Below are positions 16,186-16,480 of a stretch of 16,480 nucleotides of DNA, one piece after another. Origin of the DNA: a virus (Duplodnaviria > Heunggongvirae > Uroviricota > Caudoviricetes); the IMG/VR virus record IMGVR_UViG_2548876963_000009; one strand, 5' to 3'. Made by a program: the position numbers and the translations under genes. A model generated the notes under the pieces. That model saw only the letters and a list, made by a program, of their open reading frames with translations. It was not told where the DNA came from and made no database searches. The first letter of the stretch is position 1; each line of letters starts with the position of its first letter.

Positions 16186-16349
16186 GGCTGAACTCCTGAA
16201 AATGGCTGTGAAAATATCGCCCGCGAAATGCCGGGCTGATTAGGAAAACAGGAAAGGAGATTAGTGATTCAGGCCGTTACCGCGTCCGTCGAGAAAAACT
16301 TCCACGAGCAAATCACGGGTATAAGTGCGTTCGATGCCGCGATGCAGAT

Positions 16350-16480
16350 ATACTGGCAACTTTCCCAGCGAGCCTGGCTAACCGGGACCAGAACGAACTG
16401 AACGAAATCCGCCGCCAGTGGGTGCTGGCTTTCCGGGAAAACGGGATCACCACAATGGAACAGGTTAACGCAGGAATGCG
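16350..16480 (+). pseudogene. P: lambda P-like replication protein, start of the retained homology (about P codon 47); continues in frame at position 1
   Basis: Frame-0 translation ILATFPASLANRDQNELNEIRRQWVLAFRENGITTMEQVNAGM matches lambda P. There is no in-frame start codon upstream, and no similarity to the P N-terminus or to O upstream of ~16350. Confidence 0.7.
16425..16480 (+). repeat. Terminal 56-bp direct repeat: 16425..16480 is identical to 1..56
   Basis: Direct comparison of the first and last 56 bases (CTGGCTTTCCGGGAAAACGGGATCACCACAATGGAACAGGTTAACGCAGGAATGCG). Confidence 0.95.

Follow-up and report, generated by a model that had tools for sequence, protein, structure and literature searches.

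The stretch of viral DNA analysed here (16,480 nucleotides, the window) very probably carries a scar left when a lambdoid prophage of E. coli underwent one internal deletion, from residue 39/40 of Kil to codon 47 of the replication protein P. The original prediction had claimed a deletion junction between gam and P; comparisons by BLAST and tblastn confirmed it, and showed that the immunity region, gene O with its origin, and P codons 1-46 are lost. The similarity to P, which had been placed from about position 16350 and codon 47, starts exactly at 16351, which corresponds to P nucleotide 140 and to the second base of codon 47. The left endpoint had been assigned to the region upstream of gam and is actually situated within kil, where the breakpoint falls between residues 39 and 40 of the 68-aa protein. 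Overall, this is an ordinary scar of prophage decay, and it has already been annotated automatically in RefSeq for the sister genomes ("replication protein P; incomplete; missing N-terminus").

Position and structure of the deletion junction

In a base-by-base view against intact relatives, the tail of kil is joined to codon 47 of P between 16350 and 16351, with no filler DNA (0 bases) and with a microhomology of 0-2 bp ("TA"). The length of the microhomology depends on the relative used: in the prophage of Ecol_244 the "TA" at 16351-16352 is found on both parental sides, which gives 2 bp, and in phage PhiR26_1 it is missing from the kil side, which gives 0 bp. Beyond these 0-2 bp, no longer homology, IS end, or repeat was seen at the breakpoint in the base-by-base comparison. 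The coordinates of the features are listed in Table 1.

Table 1. Features at and around the deletion junction, in window coordinates.
Feature	Position	Strand	Description
Deletion junction	16350..16353		Last unambiguous kil-side base 16350; first unambiguous P-side base 16353
P remnant, first part	16351..16480	+	P nucleotide 140 (codon 47) to codon 90; continues at window 57
P remnant, rest	1..489	+	Codons 72-233 and natural P stop; first in-frame ATG at codon 82, window 31 (= 16455)
exo (lambda exonuclease), pseudogene	14421..15101	-	CAG>TAG at codon 157 (stop 14631..14633); 156-aa ORF 14631..15101
bet (Red beta)	15098..15883	-	Intact 261-aa ORF; K214T vs functional phages
gam	15889..16185	-	Intact 98-aa GamS-type ORF; R24H; 99% identical to intact E. 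coli prophage Gam
gam-kil spacer	16186..16260	-	75 bp, collinear with intact lambdoid phages; closed GamL-like extension (stop 16240-16242)
kil 3' remnant	16261..16350	-	90 bp: stop and residues 40-68 of 68; start and N-terminal 39 codons deleted
45-codon GTG frame	16264..16401	+	Crosses the junction, antisense to kil

Two abutting blocks of homology were seen with each of the three intact comparators (Ecol_244, PhiR26_1, and Rb-50). By BLAST against PhiR26_1, window positions 15800-16350 correspond to 4037-4587 and those from 16351 onward to 8580 onward, so that the blocks abut; against the icd prophage of Ecol_244, the window up to 16352 corresponds to sequence ending at 8871 and the window from 16351 onward to sequence starting at 13793. 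Identity to the intact relatives is 96-99% on both sides of the junction. The gene order, exo-bet-gam-kil' on the minus strand and then 'P-cargo-ybcN-ninE-ybcO-rusA' on the plus strand, is collinear with that of the intact relatives; the deletion has linked kil, of the leftward operon, to P, of the rightward operon. An alignment with the lambda genome, which had been proposed for locating the breakpoints, found the P side and misplaced the left breakpoint, because homology to lambda, which has a different kil allele, stops at 16267. Lambda alone is misleading here, and the intact E. coli prophages together with phage PhiR26_1 were needed to fix the left breakpoint.

The break may be ascribed to illegitimate recombination of the microhomology or end-joining type, in which no IS, site-specific recombinase, or homologous recombination would have taken part.

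Content and size of the deletion

Matches by tblastn in the window are limited to exo, bet, gam, the tail of kil, P from codon 47 onward, and RusA residues 1-47. None was found in the window for the lambda kil N-terminus, cIII, ea10, ral, sieB, N, rexA, rexB, cI, cro, cII, O, P N-terminus, ren, or ninB, nor for the repressor, cro, cII-like gene, O, P N-terminus, and Q of Ecol_244. The predicted absence of a repressor, of O with its origin, and of the start of P is borne out in every frame, and an O-like gene overlooked in another frame was sought by tblastn and not found. In the sister genomes, no repressor, cro, cII, N, or O is annotated anywhere in the element.

Judged by its nearest undeleted relatives, the element has lost the N-terminus of kil, the genes from kil to the repressor, a cI-type repressor, cro, a cII-like gene, O, and codons 1-46 of P. 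The corresponding interval of lambda also contains cIII, N, nutL, pL, rex, and pR. Ecol_244, Rb-50, and PhiR26_1 differ from the window in that the interval from kil residue 39 to P codon 47 is still present in them, with a length of 3.5-4.9 kb; the size of the deletion is accordingly ~3.5 kb by Rb-50, 3992 bp by PhiR26_1, and 4921 bp by Ecol_244, size and content both being inferred from these three relatives in place of the true undeleted ancestor.

On the far right, only the first 47 residues of RusA remain (6723-6863, plus strand), cut off by an IS3-family element; because of this truncation, the whole late region of the prophage is also missing.

With the kil-to-P interval gone, the element would be beyond repression, induction, antitermination, and replication. 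It would thus be a grounded prophage remnant, unable to be induced or to replicate, whose value lies mainly in correct annotation.

Distribution of the junction and genomic setting

When a 681-bp query was used, thousands of E. coli prophages and many phages matched its first 551-553 bases only. The end-to-end matches came from just seven complete genomes, in which the RefSeq labels read "Gam", "replication protein P", and "Bet". Likewise, among 5426 complete E. coli genomes, 7 gave a match that spans a 160-bp probe centred on the junction, and in all seven the junction lies within a remnant at thrW. Strains 377323_2f, Z1323PEC0014, and 2015C-4136CT1 are among the carriers of the scar. The exact 30-mer of the junction also occurs in one IMG/VR contig, which is 99.97% identical to the complete genome of strain Z1323PEC0014, and in one gut-metagenome contig; it has no match among the GTDB species representatives.

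In the sister genomes, the element is situated between tRNA-Thr (thrW, next to proA) and yagU. Its first half consists of an integrase, an IS3-family element, a PACE transporter, a LysR regulator, early-left genes, exo, bet, and gam, and its second half of the P pseudogene, an inverse autotransporter, an alpha/beta hydrolase, ybcN, ninE, ybcO, an IS3-family element, and an integrase fragment. Compared with these genomes, the window corresponds to the interior of the thrW remnant, bounded by IS elements, in a permuted form that places the two parts of P at opposite ends. The first 56 nt of the window (1-56) are the same as its last 56 nt (16425-16480), as in a circularly closing contig, and because of this overlap the P remnant continues from 16480 into 57..489. 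Because the closure of the window runs through an IS, the window contains neither the att site nor the integrase; in the sister genomes tRNA-Thr (thrW) is followed by an integrase. The closure may represent either a collapsed repeat or a real excised circle, between which the sequence alone does not tell.

The terminal overlap of 56 nt and the closure through a repeated IS indicate that at least one join in the contig is suspect, as would be expected if two lambdoid prophages had been mis-joined in a short-read assembly. However, the suspect join is at ISEc21, ~7 kb away, and not at 16350, and the identical kil-P junction is present in the seven independently finished genomes, the IMG/VR contig, and the gut-metagenome contig. 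Since the junction occurs independently elsewhere, there is practically no chance that it is an assembly chimera.

The host flanks are in native order (proA-thrW; yagU-ecp) in all carriers examined, which argues for an internal deletion and not a chromosomal rearrangement. The same flanks bear on a recombination between two resident prophages, one contributing int...gam-kil and the other P-autotransporter...nin, with loss of the intervening chromosome. Lambdoid prophages recombine freely, the divergence among carriers is patchy and confined to shared modules, and no complete genome has both arms together with an intact middle; in Rb-50, for instance, emrE occupies the position of the autotransporter. 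Nevertheless, each arm is joined through an intact immunity region in a single prophage. The prophage of Ecol_244 at icd is intact (gam-kil-...-cI-cro-cII-O-P-inverse autotransporter-hydrolase-ybcN) and has the same right-hand cargo as the window, and the prophage of Rb-50 at dsdC/torI has the same left arm (PACE transporter, LysR) with an intact kil-to-P interval. Moreover, kil and P share only 0-2 bp at the breakpoint, so homologous exchange between prophages did not make the join. Such a two-prophage origin is therefore very unlikely, and a deletion within one prophage is the preferred reading.

The unique left arm (9449-13476, 4028 bp) has 0 differences from two complete genomes (100.0% identity). 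Divergence of the window from the sister genomes reaches up to 5% in the P remnant and is raised in the Red and nin genes (13555-16480, 57-489, and 5631-6880); the differences between carriers cluster in modules common to other lambdoid phages (Red, P, and nin). This patchiness suggests that gene conversion by other lambdoid phages has occurred repeatedly, with one tract starting 16 bp from the junction. A divergence of ~1% among carriers was considered as a sign that the deletion is old, and this was dropped since the differences are confined to shared modules and the 4 kb left arm is 100.0% identical.

The segment between gam and P and the remnant of kil

The 165 bp between gam and P had been described as holding only fragmentary frames, namely a GamL-like N-terminus with a stop and a 45-codon GTG frame. 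Both frames are present, but the segment itself is collinear phage DNA, made up of the gam-kil spacer and the tail of kil (Table 1). It looked fragmentary and foreign because lambda carries a different kil allele. As the Kil reference, a 68-aa protein annotated as "phage encoded cell division inhibitor" in the Ecol_244 prophage was used; its residues 39-67 align to the remnant at 97% (tblastn). No complete kil ORF is present in the window, where just residues 40-68 and the stop are left.

The stop in the GamL-like extension is real and is shared with an intact relative. It is therefore older than the deletion, which did not produce it, and represents the ancestral condition in this phage group. 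Between the kil remnant and gam there is a weak hairpin (16236..16219, followed by GAUAUUUUCA; -13.5 kcal/mol, z = -2.2); a literature search on the lambda tL2 terminators gave nothing by which to name it, and it is called terminator-like only.

The 45-codon GTG frame exists as predicted. Its counterpart in intact phages has just 29-33 codons, and in one of them GCG replaces the start codon. It was rejected as a gene on these grounds and is probably a chance frame that the junction has lengthened.

The P remnant

The match of the remnant to the Pfam family Phage_lambda_P (PF06992) is limited to profile positions 46-162 of 162. It had been predicted that P has no valid start, and this holds: a complete P was sought and none was found, codons 1-46 being gone. 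The frame is open from 16212, and between the upstream stop and P codon 71 there is no in-frame ATG, GTG, or TTG. The first candidate starts are the GTG of codon 71 and, as the first ATG, codon 82, and no obvious ribosome-binding site precedes either of them. The P-delta-76 deletion, which removes aa 9-86, abolishes both the initiation of replication and P lethality (PMC3640518). As in RefSeq for the sister genomes, the P match is a pseudogene, and it would lack the N-terminal region (aa 9-86) required for replication and lethality.

In every carrier, the P reading frame nevertheless stays open between codon 47 and the natural stop, and its pN/pS between carriers is 0.14. In addition, the GTG at 16264 is preceded, at a distance of 4 nt, by a good Shine-Dalgarno-like sequence, AAGGAG. 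These features would be expected if the scar had made a functional product, either the 45-codon frame or a C-terminal fragment of P (from the ATG of codon 82, 152 aa, the portion that matches the Pfam P domain), which could act e.g. as a DnaB modulator or as a lambdoid-phage exclusion factor. However, the low pN/pS is accounted for by the import of alleles from functional P genes, because the remnant has 28 differences from the sister lineage in 563 positions, the first of them 16 bp to the right of the junction, while the left arm is 100.0% identical. For the donor of the window's allele, the best match among complete genomes over 700 bp is just 97.4%. A promoter-like site and an obvious ribosome-binding site before codon 71 or 82 are both wanting, the activities known for P disappear when aa 9-86 are removed (PMC3640518), and the start of the 45-codon frame is not conserved in relatives. 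It is thus highly unlikely that the scar has created a functional product. A more specific form of this proposal, in which weak expression of the retained C-terminal three quarters of P (codons 47-233, with translation starting at codon 71 or 82 at best) would supply a domesticated factor for DnaB binding or for exclusion of lambdoid phages, is extremely unlikely; if true, the exclusion-factor reading would explain why the P frame is still open in every carrier.

The Red genes

On the left side of the junction, gam was predicted on the minus strand with its end at 16185, and the 98-aa ORF at this place bears this out. Of the three Red genes, exo is a pseudogene in the window (Q157*), whereas an intact exo of 226 aa is present in the sister genomes (strain Z1323PEC0014 and another) and in intact phages. 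Besides Q157*, exo in the window has the missense changes K48E, T101I, M140I, and W170G; the gut-metagenome contig has the same four changes and K214T in bet, along with further changes seen in that contig alone. Relative to functional genes, those of Ecol_244, the Red genes of the window have 9 nonsynonymous (including exo Q157*) and 21 synonymous changes, and those of the sister lineage have 0 nonsynonymous and 30 synonymous changes (Fisher p = 0.002 between the two). The Exo, Bet, and Gam of the sister lineage (Z1323PEC0014 and the second genome) are identical in amino acid sequence to those of the functional prophage, and Red proteins are still intact in the seven complete genomes with the scar. 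These comparisons indicate that the Red module is decaying in the lineage of the window and not in every carrier of the scar, and part of the relaxed-selection signal could reflect imported alleles in place of decay in situ.

The original prediction held that the Red genes must be transcribed from a foreign or cryptic promoter, if at all. The region upstream of gam that would carry a pL-type promoter with N/nutL is deleted, and no N homologue was found by tblastn. No sigma-70-like promoter was found in 15800-16480 by a crude consensus search, which leaves room for a weak or non-sigma-70 promoter or for read-through; in 1-900, the scan gave chance-level matches only, including one 9-of-12 match on the minus strand at 668..639. 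The prediction agrees with this as far as the promoter is concerned and needs correction in that exo is already a pseudogene. The remaining early genes would be promoterless passengers, and neither expression nor function of the Red genes can be taken for granted here, exo being broken in the window.

Comparison with DLP12 and survival of the deletion

The element resembles DLP12 of E. coli K-12 in several respects. Both are lambdoid remnants in which one internal deletion has taken away the immunity region, N, O and its origin, and an N-terminal portion of P; in both, the right breakpoint is within P, and the overlap at the junction of DLP12 is 2 nt. DLP12 also keeps the nin-region genes ybcN-ninE-ybcO-rusA and carries IS3-family insertions. 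However, by alignment the junction of DLP12 connects lambda 31627, in exo, to 39972, P codon 131, so that bet, gam, and kil are gone and only the C-terminal part of exo is kept, whereas the window's element retains exo-bet-gam. DLP12 is integrated at argU, and the window's element, as seen in the sister genomes, at thrW. Therefore the proposed analogy with DLP12, with different endpoints, stands, and the description of the latter as an exoD-renD deletion does not: the annotation order is exoD', then peaD' (a P fragment), then renD, and the deletion runs from exoD to peaD, with P from codon 131. We take it that this deletion is commonly summarised as exo-to-ren, and our alignment gives exo-to-P. 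No published description of the thrW remnant or of peaD was found in a literature search. The scar of the window and the deletion of DLP12 are independent events of the same kind, with different endpoints.

A deletion from kil to P would disable several host-killing functions at once, namely Kil, "replicative killing" through O/P-driven replication at the phage origin, and the lethality of P. A deletion including the repressor would persist only if the early promoters or their lethal cargo were also gone, and the extent of the present scar may thus reflect survivorship. In the laboratory, O/P-inactivating insertions or deletions rescue cells from replicative killing by a trapped lambda cryptic prophage (PMC3640518), and the functions lost in these RK- (replicative-killing-resistant) survivors are the same as those lost here. 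The survivors differ from the window in that they were selected in the laboratory from cI857 constructs, while selection of the present scar is only inferred, and in that the window has additionally lost cI, both early promoters, and kil. The survivorship reading fits these genetics, both for P-delta-76 and for the insertions and deletions in O and P (PMC3640518). Joint loss of the killing functions is the probable reason for the survival of a deletion that includes the repressor, although the data do not separate selection from neutral decay. The element would thus offer a clean natural parallel to DLP12, in which the repressor was lost together with the functions that would kill a derepressed host, and it fits the accepted picture of prophages becoming fixed passengers.

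Insertion sequences and cargo genes

A copy of ISEc21 (IS110 family) is located at ~7758-9131, with a transposase ORF at 8039..9115 on the plus strand (Pfam DEDD_Tnp_IS110 and Transposase_20). It is flanked by the 5' 900 bp of one IS3-family element (6853-7757) and by the 3' 317 bp of another (9132-9448). Just 64% identity is shared by these two elements, yet ISEc21 interrupts both at one and the same conserved site (TTCCAyAGCGAy^CAGGG). This site was read by hand as H-S-D-Q-G of the IS3 transposase, presumably a catalytic motif. ISEc21 with such IS3 flanks is present in 473 complete E. coli genomes, which suggests that this IS110-family element specifically targets IS3-family transposase genes. 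Within the 5' end of the first IS3-family element, there is a match to isrC, an Hfq-binding sRNA (Rfam RF01387; 6885-7007, plus strand, 130.7 bits).

In the place that ren and the first nin genes occupy in lambda, downstream of P, the window carries an inverse autotransporter of 1183 aa (739-4290, plus strand), intimin/invasin-like according to the annotation of relatives, and an alpha/beta hydrolase of 347 aa (4327-5370, minus strand). In one sister genome, the inverse autotransporter is interrupted by IS66. The cargo of the left arm consists of a PACE-family multidrug/biocide efflux transporter (10283-10741, minus strand) and a divergently oriented LysR regulator (10845-11729, plus strand).
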